Shown: positions 9,894 through 52,940, counted from the stretch's first letter. The stretch is DNA of 64,000 nucleotides from an uncultured Amnibacterium sp. (GCF_964244015.1 NZ_CAXTHO010000001.1:4364-68363); one strand, 5' to 3'. Notes: generated by a model not told the origin, from the sequence alone. Numbers and translations: made by a program.

Positions 9894-10502
9894 ATGACCG
9901 ATCCGGTGCGGGTGATCGCGGATTCCGTGCGATCGCGAGCGAGACGCGGGACCCTCGGCCCGAGCCCCGGCTCCGCGGTGCAGGAGGAGCTGCGCTCGTA
10001 CGCCGAGCACGCGTTCGCCTCCGACGCGCCGCTCATCGCGGACGAGCGCCGGGCGGAGCGGCAGATCGTCGCCGATCTGACCGGATTCGGCCAGCTGCAG
10101 CCGCTGCTCGACGACCCGACGATCGAGGAGATCTGGGTCAACGCCCCGACCCGCGTGTTCGTGGCGCGCGGCGGCATCAGCGAGCTCACGCCGATCGTGC
10201 TGGGGGAGCAGGAGGTGCGCGACCTCGTCGAGCGGATGCTCGTGTCGAGCGGCCGCAGAGTCGATCTCGCGTCGCCGTTCGTCGACGCCTCCCTGCCAGA
10301 CGGCTCCCGCCTGCACGTCGTCGTGCCCGACGTCACGCGGCGGCACTGGTCGGTGAACATCCGGAAGTTCTCCGACCGCGTGACCACCCTCGACGCGCTC
10401 GTCGGTCTCGGCTCCGTCCCTCCTGCCGCCGCCGCCTTCCTCACCGCGGCGATGCTCGCGGGGCTGAACGTGCTCGTCTCCGGCGCCACGCAGGCGGGCA
10501 AG
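9894..10502 (+). pseudogene. cpaF: Tad/Flp pilus ATPase CpaF/TadA, 5' part, interrupted in Walker A
   Basis: GFGQLQPLLDDPTIEEIWVN, VDASLPDGSRLHVV and NIRKF; ends LVSGATQAGK, after which similarity stops. Confidence 0.92.
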
Positions 10503-10510
10503 TCCACCTG
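10491..10510. other. attL of serine-integrase island
   Basis: CAGGCGG-GC-AA-GT-CCACCTG, a near-perfect dyad around the AA crossover dinucleotide (10500-10501). Confidence 0.88.
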
Positions 10511-10548
10511 GTGCGAGTGGCGCACCTACGGGGTGGAGGTGACCGGAC

Positions 10549-12018
10549 ATGCGTGGAGAGAGGCAACACGGGTCTGCGGAGCAGGTCCTGGCGTACGTAC
10601 GGATTTCAGAGGACCGCGCCGACGAGGCCGCTGGGGTCGGGCGGCAACGCGAAGATTGCGTGGCGTTATGTGCCCGACTAGGGCTCGATGTCCCCGAGGT
10701 CTTCATGGACAACGATATTTCGGCATTCTTGAATAAGAGCCGGCCGGGATATGACGCCCTGATATCCAGAGTTCGCCTTGCGCCTACTCGTCTCGTGGTT
10801 TGGCATGTCGATCGTCTTTATCGGCGGCCGCGTGAACTTGAAGATCTAATCGATCTTGTGGAAGCGAATCCGATCACCATTGAAGCGGTAATGGGTGGAG
10901 GGTTTGACCTCAATACCCATGAGGGCCGTCTCATGGCTCGACAACTCGTGGCTATTGCGTCGTATGAGTCCGGCCACAAAGCGGATCGTATTCGACGTGC
11001 CAACCGCCAGAAAGCGGAGAGAGGTGACTGGCACGGTGGGCCGCGATTTGGATACGGATTAAACGGGGCCTTAGTTCCGCGTGAGGCTGCAATTGTTCGA
11101 GAAATGGCGAATCGGTGTCTTGCGGGACAGTCATTAAGGTCCATAGCGCAGTGGCTAAACGATGAGTCGGGTGCGGTTCCGACTCATGCTGCTCAGGGGA
11201 CGTTAGGCGTGTGGCACGCTACGACGGTCAAGTCAATTTTGACGTCGGCAAGGATCTCCGGTCAGCGTGCCTATGAACCGGGTAGTCATAATGGGGATTC
11301 TCCGACTGGGCGGAAAATTCTGGGGCCGGGAAACTGGCCAGCTATAATTACTCCGGATGAAACCGCGCGACTTCGCGTGATTATTGGCTCGCCTGACAGG
11401 CGTGCATCCGCTTCGTCTATCAGGCTTCTCTCATCTATTGCAACCTGCGGACTGTGTGGTGCTGGGTTGATGTCGGGGTGCAATCGCGGTGCTGCCCTAG
11501 CTCAGAAACGGCGGCGCTACTTGTGCAAGAAAGAAGCGGGTCGGCCTGATCGTGGAGGCTTGTCGATTGTCGCTGAACCGCTCGAGGATCTCATATCTGA
11601 AGCAATTATATTGCGCTTGGCGCACACTCGGATGCCGAAAGCCCAAGGTGGGACTGGGCAGTCAGAACTCTCGGCTGCCCTTGAGCGTGTTGCGGAAACT
11701 CGAGCTCGACTTGAGGATTTGTCGAGCGACTATGTCCGCGGCTTGCTCACACGGAGTGAGTTTAGTTCCGCGCGGATGGCGGCGCAGGGAGAGATTGTGA
11801 AGTCAGAGGCGGTGATCGCAAGACAGTCTAGATCGACGGTGTTTAGCGGGATTCCAATCGGAAGCGAAAGTGGCATGAGAGCGGCCTGGGATCGATGGAA
11901 TATACCGCAACGCCGGGCAATTCTCGCCGCAATAGTCGACACACTGATTGTCTTGCCGCGCAGGGATAGCGGTCCTATCTTCCGGCCCGATCGAGTCGAG
12001 TTGAGGTTCAAGGTTTAG
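10549..12018 (+). CDS. Large serine recombinase (integrase)
   Basis: YVRIS catalytic Ser, DRLYRR, recombinase domain (GGPRFGY), zinc ribbon CGLCG...YLC; GGAGGT RBS 8 nt upstream. Confidence 0.95.
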   Translation: MRGERQHGSAEQVLAYVRISEDRADEAAGVGRQREDCVALCARLGLDVPEVFMDNDISAFLNKSRPGYDALISRVRLAPTRLVVWHVDRLYRRPRELEDLIDLVEANPITIEAVMGGGFDLNTHEGRLMARQLVAIASYESGHKADRIRRANRQKAERGDWHGGPRFGYGLNGALVPREAAIVREMANRCLAGQSLRSIAQWLNDESGAVPTHAAQGTLGVWHATTVKSILTSARISGQRAYEPGSHNGDSPTGRKILGPGNWPAIITPDETARLRVIIGSPDRRASASSIRLLSSIATCGLCGAGLMSGCNRGAALAQKRRRYLCKKEAGRPDRGGLSIVAEPLEDLISEAIILRLAHTRMPKAQGGTGQSELSAALERVAETRARLEDLSSDYVRGLLTRSEFSSARMAAQGEIVKSEAVIARQSRSTVFSGIPIGSESGMRAAWDRWNIPQRRAILAAIVDTLIVLPRRDSGPIFRPDRVELRFKV

Positions 12019-38201: not shown

Positions 38202-38588
38202 ATGAACACAGAACTCAAAACACTGGCCCTGCTGCAAATGCGCGGAGAGATATTGAATCTTCCGCCACCCTCTTCTCGTCGCCGTCTCGCTGAACGCGCA
38301 ATCGCGATCATGGGCATAGAGCTTGATGATGTTCGAGCTGCCGAAACGGCTCGCATCCTTGAATCACAAGAGCAAGCAAGTCTCGATATATCAAGTGCGC
38401 TCGACGCGAAAGAGGTTGTCTCTTTTGATGAGCTCGACGAGATACGGAAATTGCATGCTTTGACAAAAGGGCAACTTAATCGCGTAGTCGGCATTCTCAT
38501 CGAGGATGGCACGGCTGCGTACGTTGGAAGCGGATACGCCAAGGCACCGGACGAAGAGCAGCTCCAGCGTGAACTCATCAGCCAGTGA
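38202..38588 (+). CDS. Hypothetical protein, possible winged-helix C-terminus
   Basis: 128 aa; LTKGQLNRVVGILIEDG...YVGSGY; overlaps the dGTPase start. Confidence 0.5.
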   Translation: MNTELKTLALLQMRGEILNLPPPSSRRRLAERAIAIMGIELDDVRAAETARILESQEQASLDISSALDAKEVVSFDELDEIRKLHALTKGQLNRVVGILIEDGTAAYVGSGYAKAPDEEQLQRELISQ

Positions 38589-40143
38589 TGATCAGGACGC
38601 CCTGAAGACACGGTTCTATGCGGAGGATGCGGAGCTCGTCTGGAGATCCGAGGCGGAGCGTGACGCCGATCGTCTGCTTTACTCAACCGCGTTCCGTCGA
38701 CTTGACGGAGTGACGCAGGTTGCATCCGCAGGCGAAGTTGCTCTGCTGCACAACAGGCTCACGCACTCCTTAAAAGTCGGACAGGTTGGTCGGAAAATTG
38801 CGGCCTCCATAAATTTCCAGGCAAACAAGAGTGAGCCCGTACGGCAAGCAATCCGAAAATTTACTGGAGTTCCTTTCAACGCAGACCGTCGAGAGGCGAT
38901 TGACCCGTGGGTTCTTGAAGCCGCAGGGATGGCGCACGACCTGGGGCATCCCCCCTTCGGTCACATAGCTGAGCAGGTTCTCCAAAAAGCGCTCGGCAAA
39001 ACTCCTAACCAAAACGAACTGCTTCCGGTACCTGAAGGGTTTTCGCTAGACGACTCTTTCGAAGGAAATGCGCAGAGTCTTCGAATAGTGACTCGTCTGG
39101 CATTTGGCCGCCTTTCAGGAGTTCTGCAGTCAGGTGCCGGCCTAAATCTGACCCGAGCAACGACATCAGCTGTGCTCAAATACCCGTGGCGCCGAAACGC
39201 GCGTCCCTCCGAGGTTGACCTCAGGAAGGAAAAGTGGGGTGCGTACGACTCTGAAGCGGACGTCTTGGAGTGGGCAACTGACGCCATCGACGATTCAGTA
39301 CGACGCGAGAGGCCGGACGGTTCGCTTGAGTGGCGGTCGGTGACGGCGCAAGCGATGGATTGGGCAGATGACATCACGTATGCCGTGCATGATGTCGAAG
39401 ACTTCTGCAGGGCAAGGCTGATTCCAGCCGATTTGCTCAGCCTCTCTGAATTCGATGCTCCATTGATTCAAGGGTTTTGGCAGTATTGTCTCGCCCGCCT
39501 GTTAGACAATTCCCTTATCTTGTCGAAAATTGATGGCGGTCAGGACTCGATTGAGCCGGCTTTGCGAGCTATCTTCTTAGGTGTACTTCGTGGACTTCCT
39601 GGGTCTACTCAGGCGACGAGGCTTGAACGTGAAGAATTTCGCAAGTGGTCTTCGGAGCGTATCGAGTTCTACACGTCCCCGCGACCCCAGGGCATCCAGG
39701 TTCTACCCGACACAGGATTTCTAGATATTGCATTGCGGCCTCTCGTCGAGGTCGAGATCCTGAAGAAGCTGACGTGGTACTTCGTTATAGAGCGGCCCGC
39801 GCTCGGATCGACGCAACGTGGTCAAGCGAAAATGATTCGTGAGCTTTTCGTATGGTTGTGCGAGTGGTCTGAGAGGGAGTATCCCGGCCCCCAGTACAAG
39901 ACCTCGGGCGTGTCGCGTACTCAATATAATGTTGGCGGGCTTCCGCCTCGACTGATTGACTACCTAGATGTCACGAGTTGGCAACAGCCCGACACCGGCG
40001 GGTACAGATCTGAACGAGAGAGAGTTGCTCGTGCTGTCTGCGACTACATCTCAAGTCTTACTGAGAAGCAAGCTCTGGACCTGCACATTCGTTTGAATGG
40101 CGCTTCGAGTGTGGCGATACTCGACAACTGGGTTCAATTCTGA
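38569..40143 (+). CDS. dgt: dGTP triphosphohydrolase (HD family dGTPase)
   Basis: RDADRLLYSTAFRRL...TQV, HNRLTHSLKV, AHDLGHPPFGH, FEGNAQ, DWADDITYAVHDVED, V.DYISSLTE; start uncertain (38506 or 38569). Confidence 0.92.
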   Translation: MNSSASDDQDALKTRFYAEDAELVWRSEAERDADRLLYSTAFRRLDGVTQVASAGEVALLHNRLTHSLKVGQVGRKIAASINFQANKSEPVRQAIRKFTGVPFNADRREAIDPWVLEAAGMAHDLGHPPFGHIAEQVLQKALGKTPNQNELLPVPEGFSLDDSFEGNAQSLRIVTRLAFGRLSGVLQSGAGLNLTRATTSAVLKYPWRRNARPSEVDLRKEKWGAYDSEADVLEWATDAIDDSVRRERPDGSLEWRSVTAQAMDWADDITYAVHDVEDFCRARLIPADLLSLSEFDAPLIQGFWQYCLARLLDNSLILSKIDGGQDSIEPALRAIFLGVLRGLPGSTQATRLEREEFRKWSSERIEFYTSPRPQGIQVLPDTGFLDIALRPLVEVEILKKLTWYFVIERPALGSTQRGQAKMIRELFVWLCEWSEREYPGPQYKTSGVSRTQYNVGGLPPRLIDYLDVTSWQQPDTGGYRSERERVARAVCDYISSLTEKQALDLHIRLNGASSVAILDNWVQF

Positions 40144-40950: not shown

Positions 40951-41985
40951 TGAACCGTCCCGGGTTTCAGGCCGCTTCGTTGCTGGCGGCTTCGTCGGCT
41001 GACGGGCCGGTTTCTTGAGCGTAATAGTTGGCCTCGAACTCGGTTGGCGGGATGTTGCCGAGGGTCGAGTGCAGCCGGGACGTGTTGTACCAATCGACTC
41101 AGCCGAAGGTCACTGCTTCGACGTCGGAAAGGGCCCTTCAAGGCGGCCGGGCGGAACGGTGATCCCGTGCGGATCGCCTCGTCCTTGAACAGCCCCATGA
41201 CCGTCTCCGCGGCGGCGTTGTCATATGCGTCACTGACCTATCCGATCGACGCGACAAGCCCTGCGAGGGCGACTGTCTCAGTGAAGCGAATGGATGTGTA
41301 TTGCGATCCGGCGTGACGTATCAATCCGGCCGCGACAGGGCGTCCGGAGTGGTCGCGTCACCAGCGCGCCACCTTCAAGCAGGCCTCGACGAACGCGGTG
41401 TCCTTGACCGTTGAGACCTCCCAACCGACGATCATTCTGGAGTACAGGTCGATCGCGAACGCGACCTAGACGAACCCGGACCACGTCGCGACGTAGGTGA
41501 AGTTGGTGACCCAGAAGTGGTTCGCGAACGGTGCGGTTAAGTCCCGGTTCAGGAGGTCACGGGCGCGCTTGCCGTCCTTGGCCGGGATCGTGGTCGTGGT
41601 CTTCCGGCCCCGGATCACGCTGGCCATGCCCTCGTCCCGCATCAATCGGTCGACGGTGTGCTTCGACACATCCGGGAACCCCTTGCGGGCCAGCGAGGCG
41701 GTCATCTTCCGGCGCCCGTAGAGCACCTCGGGACGTTGCAGACCTCGGGCGTCGCGTTGCCGCAGCTGCCGGAACACGTCGATGATCGCGGCATCGTCGA
41801 CCGCCCGTCCCGACGGTGCGCGGCGGCGCCGCGCGCGGTATGACCTTGGAGCGACGGCGACGCCCTGCGATCGCAGGACATCGCTCGTCGACTCGACGCC
41901 ATGGCCGGCCTCGCGCATCTGATCGATTAAGCGGACGAGCAGCGCTGGTGAGGGTCGAGTTCCCTCGCGAAGAAAATCGAGGCCA
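40951..41985 (-). mobile_element. Second, truncated IS3-family copy (pseudo-transposase)
   Basis: IR TGAACCGTCCCGGGTTTCAGGCCGC; YGRRKM, WVTNFTYV, AETVMGLFK; stops and frameshifts; other end missing. Confidence 0.85.
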
Positions 41986-41989
41986 CTCC

Positions 41990-42388
41990 ACCCGCAACGT
42001 GCCGCTCGTGGACCGCGGGCTGATTGCCGAGCTGCGCCGCTACCTGCTCACTCATCCGAACTCCGGCGACCCGACGCGCTGTTCTGGCCGGGTAGGGGAG
42101 TGGGGTCGCACGCGCTCGACTATGGCGGCGTCCTCGACGTCGGCAGCTTCCGCCGCAACTACTTCCGGCCCGCACTGCGCGAGCTCGGCCTGCCCGACAT
42201 GCGGTTCCACGACCTCCGACCACACCGCGGCGTCGCTGTGGCTCGCAGCCGGGTTCAGCACGTGGCAGGTGTCCCGCCGCCTCGGCCACGCGAACACCAA
42301 CGCCACGGACGCGATCTACGCGCACCTGTACCCGAGCGACTACAGCGACGACATCGCAAATTTCGATGCGCTCAGAAGTAGGGGGTGA
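41990..42388 (+). pseudogene. Tyrosine integrase C-terminal remnant 1
   Basis: RNVPL, FRRNYFRPAL, RFHDLR/HTAAS, LGHAN...IYAHL catalytic motifs, split by frameshifts. Confidence 0.8.
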
Positions 42389-42437
42389 CCGTTTGGTCCC
42401 GCCCGGTCATACTGACGAGCGGCAAGGAGGTCATCCG

Positions 42438-44108
42438 ATGAAGATTTTCTACGCGGCACCAGGTACCAAAGCTGTCAGACAGGCGGGCAGCCTGCTTCTC
42501 CGTTCGCTCAACTGGAATGACTGGTTCGAGTTTCGGACCCTCTTCGAATTGGTCTACGTCGACGAACGCGGCGTCGAAGTGAACATTGGCAGTGTGAAAA
42601 TTGGCGATCTCGAACATGAGTACAAGAACGTTGATGGCGCTGAGACGCCACTACCGCCTGCGTTCGATGAGTTGCCCCCTCGGTTTATCTCTATTGGGCA
42701 GGGCGATTCCTACTATGAGCGGCTGCTCGAAGTGCTCGGTGGCAGTCAGATGCGTGCCGTGCTCCGCGCGCTAGGCGATCTCGCTATCAATCCGTCGCGC
42801 TTTGAAGAGTTGCGTGGAATCCCACTCGTACGAAAATCACTGTTTCGAGACTTGAATGTCGCGGTGGTTAGGGGGTCCTTCGCGCGTCTAGCCCAGGGGG
42901 ACTTGGTCGAGTCGGCTAATTTCCATCTCAAGTTCCAGGCAAAACCCTCGGACCCCTGGCACTCGTCAACTGCTCCGCTTCTTGATTTTGAAGTTGACCC
43001 CGAATCGATGCCACCGACGAACGTACATGCGTTGATTGGTCGAAACGGGTCCGGTAAAACGACTCTGTTGAAGGCGATGGCGCGATCTATTATTGGCAAG
43101 CCTTTTGTGCGGCCAGGAGACGGCAGTTTCGAGTTGGCGGATGCGGGTTCTGGCCTTTCGATCGCGAGTCTTGTATATGTCTCGTTCAGTGCATTTGATG
43201 AAGTAGATGTGCCTGTGCTTGATAACTCGGTCGCGTATGACCGGCCGTACTCCTACATCGGGCTTCAATACCTGAGTGAAGACGAGGGTGACAACAGTTG
43301 GTCCTGGGAGCCAGAGACCCCAGATCCACGGACCCCTGAAAAGCCAGATGCGAAGAAGGTGACGCGCGCGGCCGGTGAGCTAGGCGGCGAGTTCGCCCGA
43401 AGTGCATGGGTGGTGCGACAGCAGCCCTCATCTCTCGAACTATGGCAAGTCGCACTCGAGCTGCTCGAATCAGACCAGAACTTCAAGTCTGCCGAAGTGG
43501 CGGATCTAGCGCGGCCATCTCTCGAAGGTGAGGATGAGGAAACGTACAAGAATAGGGCGGAGAACCTATTCCGTCGTAACCTTAGCTCTGGGCACAAAAT
43601 AGTCCTTCTTGCTATGACTCGCCTGGTTCAGACGGTAACCGAGCGCACCCTGGTACTCATTGATGAACCTGAAGGTCATCTTCACCCGCCTCTGCTGTCG
43701 GCGTGGATGAGGGCGCTGTCCTACTTGATGAAGGAACGTAATGGTTTAGCCGTAGTTGCAACCCATTCGCCGGTTGTTCTGCAGGAGGTCCCTCGACGTT
43801 CGGTCTACGTAATCAATCGTGAGGGCGACGAGCAGAGCGCTGACCGGGTCGACATTGAAACGTTCGCCGAGAATGTCGGAGTTCTTACTCACTCCGTATT
43901 TGGATTGGAAGTAACGAGTTCCGGTTTCTATACCCTCCTAGTGGATGCTGCAAAAGAACTCGGGGTCTACGCTGAAGTTCTACAACGATTCGACTCGCAG
44001 GTCGGGTTTGAGGGAAGGGCTTTGCTTAAGTCCATTCTCCCAGGGCGGATCGAGCCGAGAATTCCTTTTCGCCAGCGGCGGTCGCACAATGACCGTGCAG
44101 AAGGTTGA
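42438..44108 (+). CDS. AAA_21/ABC-type ATPase, PtuA (Septu)-like
   Basis: GRNGSGKT, LSSGHK, LIDEPEGHLHPP, ATHSP; AAGGAGG RBS. Confidence 0.85.
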   Translation: MKIFYAAPGTKAVRQAGSLLLRSLNWNDWFEFRTLFELVYVDERGVEVNIGSVKIGDLEHEYKNVDGAETPLPPAFDELPPRFISIGQGDSYYERLLEVLGGSQMRAVLRALGDLAINPSRFEELRGIPLVRKSLFRDLNVAVVRGSFARLAQGDLVESANFHLKFQAKPSDPWHSSTAPLLDFEVDPESMPPTNVHALIGRNGSGKTTLLKAMARSIIGKPFVRPGDGSFELADAGSGLSIASLVYVSFSAFDEVDVPVLDNSVAYDRPYSYIGLQYLSEDEGDNSWSWEPETPDPRTPEKPDAKKVTRAAGELGGEFARSAWVVRQQPSSLELWQVALELLESDQNFKSAEVADLARPSLEGEDEETYKNRAENLFRRNLSSGHKIVLLAMTRLVQTVTERTLVLIDEPEGHLHPPLLSAWMRALSYLMKERNGLAVVATHSPVVLQEVPRRSVYVINREGDEQSADRVDIETFAENVGVLTHSVFGLEVTSSGFYTLLVDAAKELGVYAEVLQRFDSQVGFEGRALLKSILPGRIEPRIPFRQRRSHNDRAEG

Positions 44109-44971
44109 GGAGGCTTCCTGCCCCAGACTTCGGCGTAGTCGACATTCTCAGCTCCTTGCGGACGTCGACGAAGACGGTGCGTCTGCAGGGTATGAGTGCA
44201 CAGGCTGTGCAAGCGGAACGGGATCTCGCAAACGCGGGCGCTGCTGAGGCGATCGCGACTGTGGTACCACGCTTCCCGGGGATGACGGCGCAGCAGGAGG
44301 ACGACTTCAAGTCCGGCTACGCGAAGCTCCGGCGCAAGGAAGGCGGTGCAAGGCGCTACTACAACCGCCTGATGAAGGCTCCGCTCCTCCGGCGTTGCCC
44401 GTACTGCTACGACCGTCAAGTGTCAGAGATAGATCATTACCTTCCCAGGAGTTCCTTTGCGCGCTTGGCAGTTGTTCCTCTCAATCTCGTGCCCCTTTGT
44501 CACGGCTGCAATAAGCAGAAGCTCAATTACGCTCCGTCCCCTAGTCGTCCTCCGCTGCTGCATCCCTACTTCGACTTCGCTGAGTCCGAGCAATGGATCG
44601 GAAGCTCGCTCGACGAGGACAACTTCGTCACTACGTTTTATGTCAATGTCCCTGCGCCGTGGGATGAGGACACTCGAAAGAGGGTTGAGAACCACTTCGA
44701 AGTGATGAAGCTCGGCCAATTTTGGTCCGGAAGCGCTGCGGTCTACTTCTCAACGGTGTGGGCGCGTCTGCTGCGCATATACCGGGCTAGCGGAGTCTTC
44801 GCAGTGCAGGACTACCTGCTAGAGGAGGCCGAGCTCGTAGTCGAGGGCCATGCCGAGCCGTGGAAGTTTGCCCTGTTGATGGCCTGGGCTGAGAGCGAGT
44901 GGTTCTGTGAGTGCAGGTGGCGGGGTCTGATCATGGTCGAGCTGGAATTACTGCTCGACGATGATTACTGA
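44105..44971 (+). CDS. HNH endonuclease, PtuB-like
   Basis: CPYC...EIDHYLPRS...NLVPLCHGCNKQK, LLHPYFD; TTGA overlap with the ATPase gene. Confidence 0.85.
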   Translation: MRRLPAPDFGVVDILSSLRTSTKTVRLQGMSAQAVQAERDLANAGAAEAIATVVPRFPGMTAQQEDDFKSGYAKLRRKEGGARRYYNRLMKAPLLRRCPYCYDRQVSEIDHYLPRSSFARLAVVPLNLVPLCHGCNKQKLNYAPSPSRPPLLHPYFDFAESEQWIGSSLDEDNFVTTFYVNVPAPWDEDTRKRVENHFEVMKLGQFWSGSAAVYFSTVWARLLRIYRASGVFAVQDYLLEEAELVVEGHAEPWKFALLMAWAESEWFCECRWRGLIMVELELLLDDDY

Positions 44972-45026
44972 ACCAAGCGGAGAGCGGGGTTTTAGCGGGG
45001 ATCGGCCGCCGGACCGCTGATGTCAC

Positions 45027-45198
45027 TCGGCCACGATCCGCGTAGTTCCGGGTGGGCCCCTTGGGGCTCGAAATAAATCAGAGGCAAATCAGGAGATCGA
45101 AGGGGGCCTCGAGAGACCCTTCTGACCAGGACTTTCCTGATCACTGGACTGCGGCGGATCGCACGGTTTCTCACCGGAATGTGGGCAAAATGTGGGCA
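45027..45198. other. attP-like junction: tRNA-Lys 3'-end core with flanking arm sequences
   Basis: 45051-45072 is the reverse complement of a tRNA T-arm/acceptor end; 46-bp block repeated at 52098-52143 (4 mismatches); tandem AATGTGGGCA at 45178-45198. Confidence 0.7.
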
Positions 45199-45250
45199 CG
45201 CTTCGTGCAGCGATGAGGAGCGACATCGTCGCGGTGGAACGGAGCAATCG

Positions 45251-45610
45251 GTGGCTCGCAACGAGGAGCGTCGCCAGGTCGAGGTCGCCATCGAGCTCGA
45301 GGAAACCGCCCGCACGCTCGCGCACTCGACCCGGGACGTCCTGACGCCGACGGACTCCTCCCTGCTCCTCGCCGAGCTCGGCCGGGTCGCGGACCACTTG
45401 CAGCAGACGGTCCGGCAACCGAGCGCCTGGCACGGCCGGGTCGTCGACGGGCGGGAGTACCGCGGGGAGGACGAGAACGGCGACGGCGTCACCGGCACCC
45501 TTGAAGCTGCCGCGCAGCTCGAAGCAGCCGCGGACGCGCTCGACCATGCCGGCGAGGCCCTCCGTGCCGCGCGCGCCGCCAACGACGTCATGCGATGGGC
45601 GAAGGAATAG
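45251..45610 (+). CDS. Hypothetical protein, mobile-element associated
   Basis: 119-aa helical ORF with GGAG RBS and high GC3. Confidence 0.55.
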   Translation: MARNEERRQVEVAIELEETARTLAHSTRDVLTPTDSSLLLAELGRVADHLQQTVRQPSAWHGRVVDGREYRGEDENGDGVTGTLEAAAQLEAAADALDHAGEALRAARAANDVMRWAKE

Positions 45611-46088
45611 CCCCGACCCTCGCTTCGTTGGCGCTGCGCCCACCGACCGAGCGCCCGCTTCGCGGGCGCCTGTTTCAGTGTCGGACGAGGTGCGGCCGCG
45701 CATCTCGTCGTCCCTGCGGCGTCGATCTGACGCGCCGGAGGGTGTGCTGATCGCGAGGAGGCTGCGCTCCACGCAAGTCGGGGGGCAAGAGCTGGCGCTC
45801 GGACGTCCGATGTCAGCTGTACCGTCCGGTTATGCATCGCGAATTTCGGCGAAAGCATCGGTTGCGAGACAGGATCGCGGGGCGCTCGATCAGGGCGCTT
45901 CTGACCCCGCAGTCGTCTCACTGGGCACCTCGACTATGAAGTTCAACAAGGATAGCCTTCGGTCCGCTGCATTCGGGGCGAAGACGGCAGGATGAGCACG
46001 TGAACCACGAGGGGCGCGGCAAGCACGGCCGCTGTGCGCATCGCAGCGCCGCGCCATCCTCCATCCGTCCAACAAACGGACTTCCGAA

Positions 46089-46604
46089 GTGACCACGCTT
46101 CGTAGCCTTCAGGATGAGATCGTTTATGGACGCGATTCGAGTCACTTGCGCGTCTTCGTCAGCTCAAAAATGAACGGCACTTTGGACGCTGAACGCGTCG
46201 TTGCAGCTAAAGCAATAGAAGCGCTACATGGGCACCGCGCGTGGTACTGGGAGCGCGACGCGCCTATGGGGGTTCTTCACTCCGAGCGCGAATGCACAAG
46301 TTACGCACGATCGAGCGACAGCATCGTGCTCATAGTGGGAGACGAATTGTCTGCGATCGTGCTCGCCGAGTACGAGGCCGCATCACAAGGCGGAGCCGAG
46401 CGATACTTATTCGCACGGGGGAACATTCACAGGCCACCGGACGTAGTCGACTTTCTGGCTCGCGAACGGGACCACGTAGTCTATCGCGAATTTGAGAACA
46501 CTGCTGAACTCGAGACCCACCTCTACCGAGCATTGACGCTAATACTCGTACGAAACGCTCGAGAGCAGCTCGTCCGCAGACGCTCGCGGAAGAGGTCGAA
46601 ATGA
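46089..46604 (+). CDS. Stand-alone DUF4062 (TIR/NDT-like) domain protein
   Basis: RVFVSS...L.AER, C...SD.IVLIVG, VLAEYEAA, F....EL pattern. Confidence 0.75.
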   Translation: MTTLRSLQDEIVYGRDSSHLRVFVSSKMNGTLDAERVVAAKAIEALHGHRAWYWERDAPMGVLHSERECTSYARSSDSIVLIVGDELSAIVLAEYEAASQGGAERYLFARGNIHRPPDVVDFLARERDHVVYREFENTAELETHLYRALTLILVRNAREQLVRRRSRKRSK

Positions 46605-49072
46605 ACCGAAGTGCAACCCAGTGGGACGAGCTGTTCGGCTCTGGGGAAGTAGCCGACCGCGACTTTGAGAGCTTTGGCCAAGATCTCGTTGAAGCGGCAC
46701 TAAGGGATGATCCCTCGGAACTTATCGGATTTATTCATCTCGCCGCCGAATTTGCACGAGGTAATCTTGAAGGCTTTGCGCTCTCTATCATCGGCTTAGG
46801 GACGGCTCGCTGGCGCGGCGACTTGAAGGGATTCGACGATGCAAACGTGTCGGTTGAGGGCGTCAGGCGTACTCTGACCCAAAACGATGTCGATCCGTCT
46901 CAGCTCAAGGCTGAGCTTCTCTTCTCACTAGCGGAACTAGAGCGCGCGCGCAGCGAACGTGACCAAGCGCTAGATGCGCTGAGGCGAGCAGTCGAAATCT
47001 TCTTAGCCCTCGATGAGCACCTAAGGGTTGCAGATTCGCTGAAACTAGCGGCTATCATAGCCTTCGAGAAGAAAGACCTTGGAGAAGCGGATCGGCTAAG
47101 CGCGCACGCGCGAGATCTATACGCTGCCCACGGTCAGACCGAGGATGCACTCGGCGTCGCGCTAAATCGGCTCCAGTATGCCTACTCCTCCGGCGAGCCA
47201 GGTATCTTACGATCTCGTCTCGATGAACTTTCTGACATCAATCTGCCTGCCTATGGCGCTGCCGTGATGGCTCGCTTCGAAGCGCTTTGGCAGACCACCG
47301 AGCCTGGTTCGAGTGAGGCCCGTGAATATTTTCGTCGAGCACTCCGTCTAGCTGATCTATCGTACGACGAGGAATTGCGGATTCTCATCCGCCGAGATCT
47401 GGGAACCTTCTACGCAAATCGGGGTCAGCGCCGGTGGGCAAGGCACTGGTGGCAGCGCGCGCGGGAGATGGCTCAAAGCGCCAGACTTCAAGAAGACGAA
47501 GCCGAAGTTCTGCGCAGCTTCGCGTTTCTGGCGGTCGAAGAGGACAATCTTGAACAGGCTGAGCAATTGTTCGGCGAAGCATCGGAACTCAGTGCCCGGT
47601 CGGGCGACACAGCAGGCGCGCTGCACGACCGCGCAGATGCTCTTGCTGCTCTGCTCGGCGCAGAACTGCAGCGCGCTGGTGCTACTTCCGCGGAGGAGGT
47701 TCGCGCGGAGTTCGACACTAAGGTTATTTCGCCTCTGCTGGGAACGCTCGACTTGCTCGAGGCCCGACGCGACGTGGTGTGGGCGGCTCGCATCGTCAGG
47801 AATCTGCAAGTTGCCTGGATTTTCAAGGAGGCGCAGGGGGAAGGAGCGGCTCTGCTTGGTGAGCGCGCGAACGGTGCCGCCGCCGCGCTCGAACCCGAGT
47901 ACCGAAAGGCGCTACTCCGCGGTGCGGGCCTGCTGCTAATACAAGACGAGCAGGCATCCCAGGGTGTGGCTCGCCTTGAAGAATCCGCTCAATTGGAGGA
48001 GGACGACGCGCAGTTTATCGCAGAGGACCTATGGCAACTCGCGCTGGAAGTCGATGGCCGCCTCGGTCGCCCTCGCGAGGCGATGGCTCTGGCAGATCGG
48101 GCAATCGACTTGTTCGCTGAGACGCGTGCGCTGACGTCGCTCGGCAACGCGCTAAATGACTCGGCGCTGATGGCGGAACGTGCAATGGACCCAGTCAATG
48201 CGCGATCGCGCCTAGAGCGAGCGCGAGTTCTTGCTGAGGAGCAAAGTGACCGCGTGCTTGGGGCCCTCGTAGTGTTCAATCTTGCTCATCTTGATCGTCG
48301 CGAGGGTCGCATTGCGGAGGCGCGGCGCGGCTTTTCCGACGCAGCTCAAATGTCACTAAGTGTGGGGATACGCGAGCAGGCAATTGAGTGTGAGATTGAG
48401 CTTGGCATTTGTGATTTGATCGAAGAGAAAGATTTAAAAGGTGCCTACGAGATAGGGAGCAACGCTGAGAAGTCCGCGATTGAATTGAGGGACGATCGCC
48501 TCGTGGGCGACGCGCTGTCCCTTCAAGCCAGCGTGAACTTCGCCCAAGGAGAGTTCGGGCGAGCGGCGGATCTCTGGCGGCGCAGTATGGCGGCTGATGC
48601 GACGGCCGACCCCGGAGAACGAGAGGCGTTCATATTAGAAGCGCTGGCGCGTATTCCTGAGTACAAGCGTTTTGACCGGGAGTTGAGCCGAGCTGTTCGT
48701 CGTGCTCAGAGGACCGATACTCGTGATGGACTGGTAGGAAACTTGTGGCGCCCGGCGCTGACATGGTTGCGTGCTGGGCGGATAAAGCGTGCCGCTGAAG
48801 TACTTGCTGTGGCCGCGCTTCTCGGCGCCGAGGCGTGGGGTCAGCGCCGGCGGAGCTACTCTGCGGCGAATTATGCGGCTCTCTCGCGGGCCGGAATGCA
48901 GAGTTTGGCCGAGGGTTTGGCCGGTCTTTTTGCTGTCCAGCTTATTGACGAGTTCTCTGACGAGACTCGCACCGAGCTCCTTGCGGAAACTAGTCGACAG
49001 ATCGAGCGGATAGCGGGAAGCGATGTGTCGGCAAGTCTGCTGAGGTTTCTGAGCGACGACACCGCCGAGTAG
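46601..49072 (+). CDS. All-helical TPR-repeat protein, 823 aa
   Basis: Repeated A..L..LG/A....G....A units; ATGA coupling to the DUF4062 gene; no Walker motifs seen. Confidence 0.75.
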   Translation: MNRSATQWDELFGSGEVADRDFESFGQDLVEAALRDDPSELIGFIHLAAEFARGNLEGFALSIIGLGTARWRGDLKGFDDANVSVEGVRRTLTQNDVDPSQLKAELLFSLAELERARSERDQALDALRRAVEIFLALDEHLRVADSLKLAAIIAFEKKDLGEADRLSAHARDLYAAHGQTEDALGVALNRLQYAYSSGEPGILRSRLDELSDINLPAYGAAVMARFEALWQTTEPGSSEAREYFRRALRLADLSYDEELRILIRRDLGTFYANRGQRRWARHWWQRAREMAQSARLQEDEAEVLRSFAFLAVEEDNLEQAEQLFGEASELSARSGDTAGALHDRADALAALLGAELQRAGATSAEEVRAEFDTKVISPLLGTLDLLEARRDVVWAARIVRNLQVAWIFKEAQGEGAALLGERANGAAAALEPEYRKALLRGAGLLLIQDEQASQGVARLEESAQLEEDDAQFIAEDLWQLALEVDGRLGRPREAMALADRAIDLFAETRALTSLGNALNDSALMAERAMDPVNARSRLERARVLAEEQSDRVLGALVVFNLAHLDRREGRIAEARRGFSDAAQMSLSVGIREQAIECEIELGICDLIEEKDLKGAYEIGSNAEKSAIELRDDRLVGDALSLQASVNFAQGEFGRAADLWRRSMAADATADPGEREAFILEALARIPEYKRFDRELSRAVRRAQRTDTRDGLVGNLWRPALTWLRAGRIKRAAEVLAVAALLGAEAWGQRRRSYSAANYAALSRAGMQSLAEGLAGLFAVQLIDEFSDETRTELLAETSRQIERIAGSDVSASLLRFLSDDTAE

Positions 49073-49380
49073 CGCTCTGGTCTTCGATCTCTGGCCAGTC
49101 GCTCGAGTTGCGGGGTCATGAGGTCGGCCGGTGGCCGGCTGTGCCCACGCCCTCGCGGTTGTTCGTTTCTGCGCGGCGAAGTGCGCGGCGTCGTACGGTC
49201 GGCGCTGCTGCGTATAAGCAGCTGCGCGGCCGGCTCCTCCGACAAGCCGCCGCGCGCGGTCGCTGCGCTCCCTTGTTCCGCGTCGACCTTCTCTCCTCTG
49301 CCGCCTTTCGAGTTGTGCTCCGCTGCGTCTCCTTGATGACACTTCGTGCCTTCACGGCAAAGCGACGAGAGAGGGAGACC

Positions 49381-49625
49381 ATGACCGACACCACCCCACC
49401 AGCACCGCACCCGTTCAGCACGAGGCGGGCTTACTGCAACACCTCGACCCCGCCGCGCTGGTCGTTGAGACCAATGTCCGCACCGAGGGCCTCGTCCTCG
49501 GCGCCGATTTCGTCGACTGCGTCTACATCCATGGCGCGGTCGTCCCGGTTCTGGGCTGGCGCGAGACCGACGGGGTGGTGCTCGTTCGTGCGGCCAGCGC
49601 CGCACCCTCGGCGCTCGGTAGGCGC
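49381..49625 (+). pseudogene. ParB/Spo0J N-terminal domain remnant
   Basis: Shifted frame reads LQHLDPAALVVETNVRTE...FVD...HGAVVPVLG; frameshifts and early stop. Confidence 0.5.
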
Positions 49626-49758
49626 AGGTCGCCACGACTCCCGTCTAAATTGTGCAGGCCGACGACAACTCGAGGGCCAAGCGGATCGAGGAGCAGTTGA
49701 GCGAGAACGAGCTCCGGCAGCCCTGACCGACACCGACCGGGCGGTTCTCGACGTTCCC

Positions 49759-49870
49759 GGTGTCCCGCCGCCTCGGCCACGCGAACACCGACACCACGGC
49801 CGCGATCTACGCGCACCTGTGCCCGTGCGACTACAGCAACGATCTGGCCCGGTTCGAGGTGTTCGAGGCG
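49759..49870 (+). pseudogene. Tyrosine integrase C-terminal remnant 2
   Basis: 49759-49837 matches 42268-42346 at 74/79 nt (LGHA...IYAHL). Confidence 0.8.
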
Positions 49871-49955
49871 CGCCCGGGGCTGTCCGGGTAAAGGTTTCAG
49901 CCGCGTCGGAGGGCGCTGCTACGTTCAGCCATCCCTCTCTGAACGGCTGTGCCTC

Positions 49956-51005
49956 ATGGCGACCTACGGCTTCCGCATCCACACCCTGACGCCTTACCTA
50001 CAGCGGCATTACAAGACGCTGCTGAACGTGGAGGACGTGTCGAGGGCGGGCGGCGAGCCGGACTCGCTCAATCAGGTTTACAACCAGCTGATCGCGATGC
50101 GCGGCGACACGAAGTTCGGCACCCCGACCTACATGACGACGCCTCCGGAGGAAGCTGTCCGGCTCGCTGCGCAGGAAGCGGCGGAGAATCTGGCGTACTT
50201 CACGGTGCTGGATGTCTCGCGGCTCGGCCGAACGATCGAGGTACTGGTGGAGACGGGCAGGGAGTCCGACCATGACGGCATTCGTCGTCGCGACGGTTCC
50301 CTGGAGGACGCCCGTGGTCGGGCGGCGATCCGCACTAGCACTGTGTTGCTCGTGTTCCCGACCGCAGGGGAGCACGCGTTCATGGTTTCAGAGGTCCGCG
50401 GGCGCGGCTCTGCTGGGGTCCTGCTGATGGACTGGGTCACTCGGCTGGCGCAGCGCGCGGCCGTGTCGTACGACGAAGGTGGCATACGGACCGAACTGCC
50501 ATGGCTCAACTGGAAGCCCACCCCGCGAATCGATGGCGAGCGGCTCGACGGCATTCTGGAACGCTCGTCAAACTTCTCCTTCACCCTTCGACGTGAGGCT
50601 GTGAGCTCGACCGGAGAGCGCAAGAGCTACGACATCGAGGTGGTTCAGTACGGGCTCAAGAAGACTCCGGTCGAGGCGGTGCTCAACGTCTTGATGAAGC
50701 TGTCATCGCGCAAACATTCCGGAACGGAGGCGCAGCGACGCGTCGCGGCGGCGGCGGATGTGCTGACGCTCGTGGAGCCCGATATCACGAAGGTCGAGTT
50801 CACTGACGCCGAGATGTCGTTCGATGAGAACGGCAAGAAGCAGACCGTGACGTCAGAGACCGTGGACGAGCTGTTCATCTACCCGTTGGGCTCCGACCGT
50901 CCAAGCGCGAGCAAGTTGAAGTCGGTGGCAGGGCCCATCATCGAACGGATCGCAGCGAACCTGAACTCGCAGGTCGCGACGGATGCCGAGGAGGAGGGCG
51001 CATGA
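49956..51005 (+). CDS. Hypothetical soluble protein, 349 aa
   Basis: Long ORF with alpha/beta pattern; ATGA-coupled to a membrane protein gene. Confidence 0.75.
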   Translation: MATYGFRIHTLTPYLQRHYKTLLNVEDVSRAGGEPDSLNQVYNQLIAMRGDTKFGTPTYMTTPPEEAVRLAAQEAAENLAYFTVLDVSRLGRTIEVLVETGRESDHDGIRRRDGSLEDARGRAAIRTSTVLLVFPTAGEHAFMVSEVRGRGSAGVLLMDWVTRLAQRAAVSYDEGGIRTELPWLNWKPTPRIDGERLDGILERSSNFSFTLRREAVSSTGERKSYDIEVVQYGLKKTPVEAVLNVLMKLSSRKHSGTEAQRRVAAAADVLTLVEPDITKVEFTDAEMSFDENGKKQTVTSETVDELFIYPLGSDRPSASKLKSVAGPIIERIAANLNSQVATDAEEEGA

Positions 51006-51562
51006 GCAGTCGCCTCGTCCCCACGCAGGTGTTCCGCGCGCACTGGAAGGCGCTGAGCGACTACCGCGGCGACAAGATCGTGCCGGACCGCACCACGCGC
51101 ACCCTGGTCGTCGCGATGCCTGTCGTGGCTGGCGTGCTGTTCGGATTGCTCGGCGGTCGGCTCGGAGCGCCAGACGCGCTCCTGGCTGCCGTGTCGCTGC
51201 TGGCAGGCGGCTTCTTGGCGGCGTTCAGCCAGGTCGCCACGTTCCGTGCTCGGCTGACTGAGCGCGCCGAGATGATGCCCGATGCCGAGCGGGCCGACCG
51301 CGACTCCCTGGATGAGACCGCCGCGCATCTGCTCGTCGCCGCGTACATGTCGGGTATCACGGCGCTCGTCCTCGTGATCGCGACGAACGTTTCCGAGGAC
51401 AAGCACGGTGGCGTCGTCGGCTGGTGGGGTGCGCTCGCTGTCGCCACCGGGCTGCACGTGCTGATCGTGTTCGCTATCGCGATTCCGCGCCTCTACAACG
51501 CCTACGCCCACACCAACGGCGTCCGCAAGGAGCTGAGCGGGACGCATCGCGGCCGACGCTGA
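51002..51562 (+). CDS. Hypothetical membrane protein (about 4 TM)
   Basis: HWKALSD N-terminal helix then four hydrophobic segments. Confidence 0.75.
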   Translation: MSSRLVPTQVFRAHWKALSDYRGDKIVPDRTTRTLVVAMPVVAGVLFGLLGGRLGAPDALLAAVSLLAGGFLAAFSQVATFRARLTERAEMMPDAERADRDSLDETAAHLLVAAYMSGITALVLVIATNVSEDKHGGVVGWWGALAVATGLHVLIVFAIAIPRLYNAYAHTNGVRKELSGTHRGRR

Positions 51563-51572
51563 CGCAAGCCGT

Positions 51573-51734
51573 TCAGCGAAGCAGCAGGGATCTGACGACG
51601 ACGCCTACCAATACCGTGCCGCCGACGGCAGTGGCGACGAGTATCGCCGCGAGCACCATCAGAAAGCCGAAACGTACGGTCGTCGCCCAGTCACTGCTCG
51701 ACGCGCGCCACATGTAGCGGAGCAGGCGGTGCAT
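51573..51734 (-). CDS. Small single-TM hypothetical protein
   Basis: MHRLLRYMW...DWATTVRFGFLMVL; weak support. Confidence 0.3.
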   Translation of the reverse strand: MHRLLRYMWRASSSDWATTVRFGFLMVLAAILVATAVGGTVLVGVVVRSLLLR

Positions 51735-52121
51735 CCATGTCGCACGGCGCGTCTTGAGCGAGTGAGGGTTCTGCGGTCGGCGAAAAGCCGGAGGTTCCGA
51801 AGCCACTTGTTTCCACCATCGTTCAGCAGCACCGCGGGTACGGCGCTGATGGCGACTGGTGGAGGGGTCACCGCGTTCTGCTCCTGATTCCGCTCGGGCC
51901 GGAGGAGCAGCCGTTCGGTGGCCACTGTCGCTCTGTTCGTTTGAATCGGCTCCTGCAGCGCGTACCGGCACTCAGAGGCTCTCGACGCATTAGGGGTTTT
52001 GCTGCTGCTGTACCCCGATTGTCCGTCAGGCGGGGGACATCGTCAAGCCGGAGCCGCGGGGTTTGGCTGGGATCTGTCGTGCCAGCGCCTAGGCCGATCG
52101 GCCGCGATCCGCGTAGTTACG

Positions 52122-52164
52122 GGTGGGCCCCGTGGGGCTCTAACCCACGACCCGCGGATTGAAA
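52122..52164 (-). other. tRNA-Lys-like 3' half (att core of a tyrosine-integrase element; not a full tRNA)
   Basis: Reverse complement TTTCAATCCGCGGGTCGTGGGTTAGAGCCCCACGGGGCCCACC; no D-arm or 5' half next to it. Confidence 0.7.
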
Positions 52165-52307
52165 TTTCGAGAGGTCTGGGGTTTGCAACCACCGTGTGTC
52201 GTGGCGACTGCACGGACCCCAAATTCCGCAATGATCAGTAGTTCCGCAAGCTTCTGTCTGTCTGGTCTTCAGAGCGTCAGCTTCGCTGCCACTGGTGTCA
52301 AACGCGA

Positions 52308-52327
52308 CAGGTGGTAAAGACCACGAT
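52308..52327. other. attR of serine-integrase island
   Basis: CAGGTGG-TA-AA-GA-CCACGAT; left arm is the exact complement of the CCACCTG arm at attL. Confidence 0.88.
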
Positions 52328-52940
52328 GCTGAACGCGCTGCTCGCCGCCGGCAGGCCGACGGACCGGGTCGTGACGGTGGAGGAGACCTTCGAGCTGAAG
52401 CTGCCCGGCCGCGACGCGGTCGCGATGCAGTGCCGGCAGCCGAGCCTCGAAGGGACGGGCGAGATCACCCTGCGGCGCCTGATCAAGGAGGCGCTGCGCA
52501 TGCGGCCGGACCGCATCGTCGTCGGCGAGGTGCGGGAGGCGGAGGCGCTGGACCTGCTGATCGCGCTGAACAGCGGTGTCCCGGGGGCGTGCAGCATCCA
52601 TGCGAACTCGGCGCGGGACGCGCTCGTGAAGCTCTGCACGCTGCCGCTGCTGGCGGGCAGGAACATCGACGCCGGGTTCGTCGTGCCGACGGTGGCGTCC
52701 GCGGTCGACCTCGTCGTGCACTGCGAGCTGCAGCGCAGCGGGCGGCGGCGGGTGAAGGAGATCCTTGCGCCGACCGGGGCCCTCAGCGCTCCCGCCGTCG
52801 AGGGCGGGGTGATCGAGGCGACGCGGCTGTTCGCGCTCGACGGCGACGTCCTCCGGGCGACGGGCGGCTTGCCGCCGAAGCAGGAGAAGTTCCTCGCCGT
52901 GGGGCTCGACCCGGCTCGGCTGGTCGGGAGCGCCGCGTGA
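52317..52940 (+). pseudogene. cpaF: CpaF/TadA 3' part
   Basis: KTTMLNALL, VTVEETFEL, LRMRPDRIVVGEVREAE, SIHANS; continues the Walker A cut at 10502. Confidence 0.92.

Follow-up and report, generated by a model that had tools for sequence, protein, structure and literature searches.

What placed pieces of two tyrosine integrase genes, together with fragments of a lysine tRNA gene, in the last part of a genomic island that carries a serine integrase? This question is raised by a stretch of 64,000 nucleotides (hereafter the window) from an uncultured Amnibacterium sp. (GCF_964244015.1, NZ_CAXTHO010000001.1; C1:4364-68363 in our numbering of contigs), a member of the family Microbacteriaceae whose genome comprises 3.0 Mb in 219 contigs at ~70% G+C. 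An earlier note on the window had proposed that two relic elements lie here in tandem, each with a two-gene cassette between its integrase (int) and its attachment site (att). Our analysis leads us to conclude that positions 41987-52164 are very probably a decayed tandem array of small integrative elements that targeted the 3′ end of tRNA-Lys(TTT) and carried a variable slot for defence genes. Two families of tyrosine integrase contributed to the array, and these are called type A and type B below.

The array, together with an insertion sequence (IS) that damaged its first gene, consists of the following features, given in window positions. Open reading frames are abbreviated as ORFs, and GC3 is the G+C content of third codon positions.

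41157-41918, minus strand: remnant of an IS3-like element with an HTH_21 domain, which removes the N-terminal two thirds of integrase 1
41987-42388, plus strand: type-A integrase remnant 1, the C-terminal 133 codons of ~394, located by tblastn
42439-44108, plus strand: Septu PtuA ATPase, cargo of unit 1, with a likely ATG start at 42439 after AAGGAGG
44105-44971, plus strand: Septu PtuB-type HNH nuclease, cargo of unit 1, recognized by PADLOC and by the Pfam HNH family
44978-45051, plus strand: P′ arm of unit 1, with arm motif GGGGTTTTAGCGGGGAT at 44986-45002 and core-proximal motif CGATCCGCGTAGTTCCGG at 45034-45051
45051-45072, minus strand: att core 1, corresponding to the final 22 nt of tRNA-Lys(TTT) (T loop through acceptor end); a type-B junction
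45073-45198, plus strand: P arm of a type-B element, with arm sites GTGGGCAAAATGTGGGCA at 45181-45198, which aligns with the P arms on contigs C153, C113 and C171
45179-45610, plus strand: first gene of the type-B element, 143 aa, with no Pfam or PADLOC match
46089-49072, plus strand: DUF4062-like protein (171 aa) and TPR protein (823 aa), assigned by Pfam, cargo at the P-arm end
49416-49723, plus strand: ParB-family remnant, covering the N-terminal ~115 codons and broken by one frameshift and two stops, recognized through an intact homologue
49745-49890, plus strand: type-A integrase remnant 2, the last ~43 codons; by tblastn, 49745-49873 corresponds to residues 351-393; nucleotide identity to remnant 1 of 88-93%
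49956-51562, plus strand: overlapping pair of genes for 349-aa and 186-aa proteins, cargo of unit 2, with coding-type GC3 of 0.82 and 0.87
52049-52122, plus strand: P′ arm of unit 2, with GGGGTTTGGCTGGGAT at 52058-52073 and CGATCCGCGTAGTTACGG at 52105-52122
52120-52164, minus strand: att core 2, spanning tRNA-Lys(TTT) from its anticodon loop through the acceptor end (3′ half); type-A extent

The first line of evidence comes from the integrase remnants. When an intact 394-aa relative was compared with the window by tblastn, remnant 1 matched residues 262-394 across three frames; from this, two 1-nt frameshifts can be deduced, near 42070 and 42220. The catalytic C-terminal motifs can still be read through these lesions (...HDLR, a frameshift, HTAASL...GHAN...YAHLY). 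The remnant 1 ORF itself has no Pfam match and is not listed in a whole-genome search for PF00589, as expected of a frameshifted piece; the type-B integrases of the same genome do match PF00589. Remnant 2 retains only the end of the gene, and the two remnants are 82% identical over 122 nt (42252-42373 compared with 49743-49864), with a core of 78/84 nt (92.9%) that gives an E value of 1e-27 when searched against the whole genome. Integrase 1 would have been reduced to its stub by the IS insertion plus the frameshifts, and integrase 2 by deletion. The IS remnant is recognizable from the Pfam HTH_21 domain (E 1e-10, 41466-41918) and from tblastx similarity of 41157-41672 to contig C131. Against the rest of its own genome, the type-A query matched only the type-B integrases on C153 and C113 (E ~1e-11), and when type-A core proteins (primase, resolvase, HTH and others) were compared with the window and the genome by tblastn, nothing matched. 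Since the genome has no intact type-A integrase, the units can no longer excise.

The second line of evidence is the attachment sites. The two att blocks span 44978-45072 and 52049-52164, and the first is 75% identical over 95 nt to 52049-52143, with 40/43 nt identical in the shared core. Thus, both the integrase and the att repeats that had been pointed out in the earlier note are real. The genome's own tRNA-Lys(TTT) gene lies on contig C41 (c370-445; ARAGORN). On the minus strand, window 52122-52160 corresponds to tRNA-Lys positions 37-75 with 38/39 nt identical (E 4e-15), and window 45051-45072 corresponds to positions 54-75 with 21/22 nt identical (E 5e-5), which upholds the proposed specificity for tRNA-Lys. 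The overlap with the tRNA amounts to ~39-44 nt in att2, as in type-A elements, and to 21-22 nt in att1, as at a type-B junction. Matches to the genome's other tRNAs are absent from the whole island, and the region contains no full tRNA. A reading of the att2 fragment as tRNA-Glu, taken from its anticodon, was ruled out by the alignment to the genome's tRNA-Lys(TTT). The 369 nt beside the real tRNA-Lys gene on C41 had been considered as the C-terminus of a serine recombinase; this found no Pfam support and was dropped.

We then asked how intact relatives are built. A search of 201 Microbacteriaceae genomes with the read-through of remnant 1 (E ≤ 1e-10) found relatives in 49 of them, the best being 61-68% identical with open frames of 378-452 aa. 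Among 16 fetched loci, 12 have a complete tRNA on the opposite strand 0.45-2.9 kb downstream of the integrase. A second set, one genome per species, has a convergent tRNA in 19 of 23 loci, across gaps of 0.3-4 kb; a few loci belong to both sets, which together give 31 of 39 rows. The tRNAs concerned are those for Met, Lys, Gly, Ser, Thr, Tyr, Leu, Pro and Cys, and five intact loci (L022, L050, L051, L057 and L065) are at tRNA-Lys(TTT). In six relatives, direct repeats of the 3′ part of the tRNA, 26-52 nt long and reaching to the anticodon loop or stem, bound elements of 2.9-12.3 kb; the tRNA-Lys element L057 has a repeat of ~43-52 nt and measures 4.6 kb. An integrase, cargo and att in tandem, as the earlier note had it, is therefore the normal layout of intact relatives, repeated. 

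Besides the integrase, the larger of these elements encode a ~700-aa Toprim/AAA_25 protein, a small resolvase, an Xis-like protein with HTH_17, and small proteins that are RHH-like or unknown; the resolvase lies directly upstream of the integrase in three of four fully annotated relatives. Among the selected ORFs scanned from the relatives, Pfam gave no capsid, packaging or conjugation genes in the 9.5-12.3-kb elements, and no helper-hijack genes, one of the marks of a phage satellite, were recognizable. Other such marks, namely small size and an integrase together with a replication (primase-helicase) module, are present. Ten proteins scanned from these elements gave no match to FtsK/SpoIIIE-type Tra, Spd or RepSA, the modules belonging to AICEs (actinomycetes' integrative and conjugative elements). 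From this gene content (Toprim/AAA_25 primase-helicase, Xis-like HTH_17, small resolvase, integrase) it is plausible that type-A elements are satellite-like.

A third line of evidence is the sequence between cargo and tRNA. In most relatives, GGGGTT-N5-GGGGAT or a close variant lies ~60-75 nt from the tRNA 3′ end and a GATCCnnnnGTTTAC-like sequence adjoins that end. Both motifs occur in both att blocks of the window, at distances found in most intact relatives at six different tRNAs. The double motif is also present in the distal P arms of intact type-A elements, and within the window it is confined to the two att blocks, plus one looser match within the serine integrase gene. The integrated form of a type-A element comprises the integrase, a cargo slot of 0.3-4 kb, a P′ arm of ~100 nt bearing GGGGTT-N5-GGGGAT and a convergent tRNA.

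Between the two type-A units lies material of the other integrase family. The AATGTGGGCA repeats, which had been assigned in the earlier note to the integrase of unit 2, are not its arms; they are arm sites of type-B integrases, the genes for which end in the codons for VGKMWA. The sequence GTGGGCAAAATGTGGGCA forms these last codons in the intact tyrosine integrase genes on C29, C153 and C113, and on C153 and C113 a copy with one mismatch is found 5-9.5 kb upstream, ~105 nt from a short tRNA 3′ piece. The type-B core is only ~21-25 nt long, from the T loop to the 3′ end, and att1 has exactly that shape; its 21-nt limit recurs on C171 and in an array in the same-genus genome G201. The latter is a native array at a real tRNA-Lys, which lies at 886491; the core copies are found at 819229, 838560 and 875009, and the array consists of three elements of ~19, 36 and 11 kb (67 kb in all), the middle one being type B. 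Over 320 nt, the left end of this type-B element and window 45049-45367 share 75% identity (E 2e-57), and over 63 aa the product of the 143-aa gene of the window is 52% identical to that of its positional counterpart in the G201 array. By this similarity, a type-B element has its left end, with the short core, the P arm and the first genes, at window 45051-45367. As this left end lies between type-A units, the array holds the remnants of at least three elements from two integrase families, or else a hybrid.

Deletion has probably removed the right part of the type-B element, a core copy and most of unit 2, and would thereby have joined the ParB stub to the last codons that remain of integrase 2. 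Searched directly, the ParB remnant matched nothing in Pfam or PDB. It is, as the earlier note had said, real: over ~100 residues it shares 51% identity with the N-terminus of an intact 492-aa protein of a related genome, which carries ParB_N and HTH_ParB domains and matches Spo0J (E 2e-12). The DUF4062-like and TPR genes sit at the P-arm end of the type-B element and not in the slot between integrase and att.

The genome also carries type-B elements on C153 (5.9 kb), C113 (9.7 kb), C29 and C171, with the 18-nt arm sites at both ends and 0-1 mismatch between them; the core of the C153 element is tRNA-Ser-like. The type-B arm site overlaps the stop region of the integrase gene and is invariant at synonymous positions, which points to a constraint at the level of the DNA.

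What, then, did the units carry? The first gene of unit 1 matches the PADLOC profiles PDC-M01A (E 5e-159) and PtuA (E 6e-139) over nearly their full length, as well as Pfam AAA_21; the second, which overlaps it by 4 nt, matches PDC-M01B (E 9e-66, profile positions 1-278 of 282). The pair, noted earlier as ATPase plus HNH, is by its sequence a full-length, ordinary member of Septu. With its integrases dead and this pair at full length, the array has lost mobility and kept cargo, as had been suggested. The 349-aa and 186-aa pair of unit 2 matched no Pfam or PADLOC family, and the DUF4062-like and TPR pair (TPR_12, E 3e-10) had no PADLOC match. By tblastn the window cargo had no homologue in any other slot among all fetched loci, and a tblastx comparison of the region with the remaining genome yielded compositional noise only and no cargo paralogue. 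The unnamed cargo is presumably defensive. These genes (Septu, the 349- and 186-aa pair, and the DUF4062-like and TPR pair) persist as ORFs and have in effect become fixed genes of a larger defence island.

That the slot is variable follows from the relatives. Their gaps hold 1-3 ORFs with a G+C content usually below that of the integrase gene, and Pfam and PADLOC identified among them a type II methyltransferase (MTase_II, E 2e-190) with a 352-aa partner, another methyltransferase pair, SIR2 (three times), a CAP12-type TIR protein, HEPN_Swt1 with DUF5343, AIPR, ApeA, DUF4145 (twice), DUF4365, Schlafen AlbA_2, DUF6932, DUF6575 and DUF3223. Judged from these families, the cargo of the slot appears to be mostly of defence type (restriction-modification, SIR2, TIR, HEPN, AIPR, ApeA). 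An all-against-all comparison of 48 gap ORFs from the loci of 26 relatives, together with the window cargo, gave few recurrent groups. A DUF6932 pair is common to a tRNA-Gly and a tRNA-Lys element (L034 and L057; 66% and 55% identity), one gene is common to two tRNA-Gly elements (89%), and a ~200-aa protein follows the integrase in four tRNA-Tyr/Leu elements (36-58% identical). The seven tRNA-Lys slots, that is, those of the five intact loci and the two window units, all hold different cargo between conserved flanks, namely the 3′ end of the integrase gene and the P′ arm motif; the check that the earlier note had proposed, for variable cargo at this position in intact relatives, was thereby passed. 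On this comparison the slot adjoining the integrase is a defence hotspot, and the same cassette can apparently occur across tRNA specificities.

Two further observations concern cargo positions. In the extended locus L027 (G153:C1), an 11.7-kb type-A element has three genes just inside its distal att, at the P-arm end: a cytosine methyltransferase-like and a Vsr-like gene, so named from reading their sequences, and a 338-aa gene with no Pfam match. This suggests a second cargo position, comparable to the site of the DUF4062-like and TPR genes in the window. Elsewhere in the Amnibacterium genome, C32, C85, C56 and C82 carry other tyrosine integrases or their remnants convergent with tRNA-Ser or tRNA-Arg across gaps of ~0.15-2.2 kb, and these may be further slots between an integrase and a tRNA.

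Several points weigh against our interpretation. The role of the conserved GGGGTT/GGGGAT motif as an arm-binding site of the integrase is deduced from its position and conservation, since it is kept across tRNA targets and always lies between cargo and tRNA; from the same position, the cargo would lie inside the element rather than in a separate one. Unit 2 joins a type-B left end to a type-A right end. Three of the four cargo sets in the window have no PADLOC match, and the DUF4062 match (E 0.002) is below the cut-off. The ORFs of the relatives were called crudely, by length and GC3. Finally, the ~200-aa protein of the tRNA-Tyr/Leu elements may be a backbone gene, in which case the slot is not purely variable.

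How the array came to its present place has to be considered in light of its surroundings, which comprise three further features:

10509-52324, plus strand: island of 41.8 kb with lower G+C, which interrupts cpaF at its Walker-A codons
10549-12018: large serine recombinase (Resolvase, Recombinase and Zn_ribbon_recom domains), just inside the left island junction
52165-52324, plus strand: flank without tRNA sequence, up to the island end, which starts with GGTCTGGGGTTTGC (52173-52186), resembling the start of a type-A P arm

The two halves of cpaF match Pfam T2SSE at model positions 4-157 (ORF 9894-10736) and 155-279 (ORF 52311-52940). They are 41.8 kb apart here, and when joined they correspond to one open frame in seven same-genus genomes (76-91% identical); in the eighth, G201, cpaF has a different insertion. 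The break falls within the Walker-A codons (GKST/MLNALL), and the right junction reads GGTAAAGACCAC followed by GATG at 52313-52328. The array forms the last 10 kb of the island, with 160 bp between the end of att2 and the right island end.

Arrays of this kind grow as each newcomer recombines with the tRNA-like core left by its predecessor. The tRNA-like part of att2 stops at the anticodon loop, near the limit of type-A blocks, and two routes into the island agree with this. Of these we infer, with a slight preference, that the array was built up on an attP-like core borne by the island instead of being captured from a chromosomal tRNA-Lys locus. Quite possibly, the array grew in situ: the island or its ancestor bore one type-A module (int1, Septu, P′ arm, core and P arm), its tRNA-Lys-like core served as a landing pad for later elements, and the neighbouring serine integrase then took over in a swap of integration modules. 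The order of int1, first cargo, P′ arm, core, newcomers, second P′ arm, core and flank is what insertion into a resident attP would be expected to give, and the sequence that follows att2 has a beginning like that of a type-A P arm. When the island is circular, the flank would abut the serine attP and the serine integrase gene, which is the usual place of integration modules. However, the likeness of the flank to a P arm amounts to just 12/14 nt and was seen with one type-A P arm, that of L026; otherwise, 52165-52324 had no match among the sequences compared. The double arm motif would be expected 130-200 nt from the core, which is beyond the island end, and a sister island in genome G072 is without such a module. 

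Capture is possible but more doubtful. Here the array would have grown at the chromosomal tRNA-Lys of some host, and recombination, either IS-mediated or illegitimate, would later have brought an internal piece of it into the island. The genus does have native tandem arrays at tRNA-Lys, as in G201, and an IS remnant forms the left border of the array. The far end of the G072 island, the nearest sister island, the serine integrase of which is 64% identical, has neither a tyrosine integrase nor a tRNA relic, so the array is not ancestral to that island family. On the other hand, no 5′ half of the tRNA is found beyond att2, and identity ends near the limit of the type-A block, as at a recombination junction and not at a random break; the right border has no IS, and the array ends close to the island end. 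That the two units arose by segmental duplication of one integrase-cargo-att unit within the island, with the cargo of one replaced later and never two independent integrations, is very improbable: the region indeed has no long repeats other than the integrase stubs and P′ arms, which are direct repeats, but the copies are only 75-93% identical with no common cargo, the cores of att1 and att2 differ in length, and between the copies lies a type-B junction with a P arm of its own, homologous to an element of a native array.

Some observations concern the island more than the array. Within the flank, at 52224-52249 between att2 and the island end, TTCCGCAA is present in two copies 18 nt apart and could be a site for a recombinase or a regulator. 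The closest relatives of the serine integrase also sit at residue ~200 of cpaF-like genes (G072 and G094). Relatives that are 64-70% identical adjoin cpaF-like fragments starting or ending at residue ~200 in two other genera, and one of them bounds an 85-kb island; the loci examined for this were window 10497-10560 and 52300-52328, L099, L102 and G072:C5:36468-122955. For this family of large serine recombinases, the target appears to be the part of cpaF/T2SSE ATPase genes that codes for Walker-A (residue ~200). In G201 (L093, G201:C3:345001-363000), cpaF lies beside tRNA-Leu(TAG) and is interrupted at residues ~70-85; the inserted element measures 13.9 kb and has a 403-aa tyrosine integrase at the junction. 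Since this is a different, tyrosine-integrase element, cpaF looks like a recurrent insertion target in the genus. To the left of the array, between IS and rve remnants, lies a dGTPase-type defence gene (window 38506-40143; PADLOC E 9e-76). It has no adjoining att or integrase relic and could be the cargo of another decayed unit.

Tandem accretion of islands at tRNA genes, and fossil att sites left after a prophage has swapped its integration module, are both ordinary. The array resembles the former in that repeated partial tRNA 3′ ends separate successive elements, and the latter in that a tRNA-like att relic lies inside an element that uses another integrase. It differs from tandem accretion in its location, at the end of a serine-integrase island in cpaF and not at a tRNA gene. 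The Septu pair, with its near-full-length PADLOC matches, shows no notable difference from known members. 

For the slot, the closest precedents are the defence hotspots of P4-like satellites and P2-like phages (Rousset et al., 2022; PMC9122126). As there, different anti-phage systems occupy a fixed position in related elements, which in P4 is beside the integrase, and as in P4-like satellites there is a primase-helicase and there are no capsid genes. In contrast to P4, the hosts are Microbacteriaceae (Actinomycetota), no relation between the integrases has been demonstrated, the type-A slot lies between the stop codon of the integrase and the P′ arm of attP, and there are no psu/sid/delta-type genes and no known helper phage. 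Also described are tyrosine-integrase (IntY) islands at transfer-messenger RNA (tmRNA) or tRNA genes, which lack transfer genes of their own and bear variable defence cargo (PMC12595487). These islands, and the phage defence elements cited in that source, likewise have direct repeats at the tRNA or tmRNA 3′ end and variable cargo right after the integrase. They measure 20-55 kb, occur in Pseudomonas and Vibrio, and have a tRNA-proximal integrase with AlpA at the far end. Type-A elements, by contrast, measure 3-12 kb and carry the resolvase and Toprim/AAA_25, and the copies in the window are dead relics in another island.

The principle of an integrase-side slot with turnover of defence genes is therefore known, and no new principle is shown here; what is new is the type-A family with its arm motif, along with the unannotated occupants of its slot. 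A broader proposal would be that type-A elements are previously undescribed, widespread actinobacterial defence carriers with a dedicated site of cassette exchange, that cassettes move between tRNA specificities via the conserved flanks or an element-encoded recombinase, and that the unannotated occupants are new anti-phage systems. We think this unlikely; were it true, the new systems would be the 349-aa and 186-aa pair and several 200-450-aa proteins in the relatives.

The layout described here provides a rule for finding candidate defence genes in Microbacteriaceae and related actinomycetes, a group thought to be rich in rare defence systems: a type-A integrase, a gap, GGGGTT/GGGGAT and a convergent tRNA. 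Several slot occupants belong to no known family and are testable candidates. Within the Amnibacterium island itself, the array illustrates that partial tRNA pieces in islands are fossils of attachment sites, and that mobile elements, once dead, leave their defence genes as fixed parts of a larger island.

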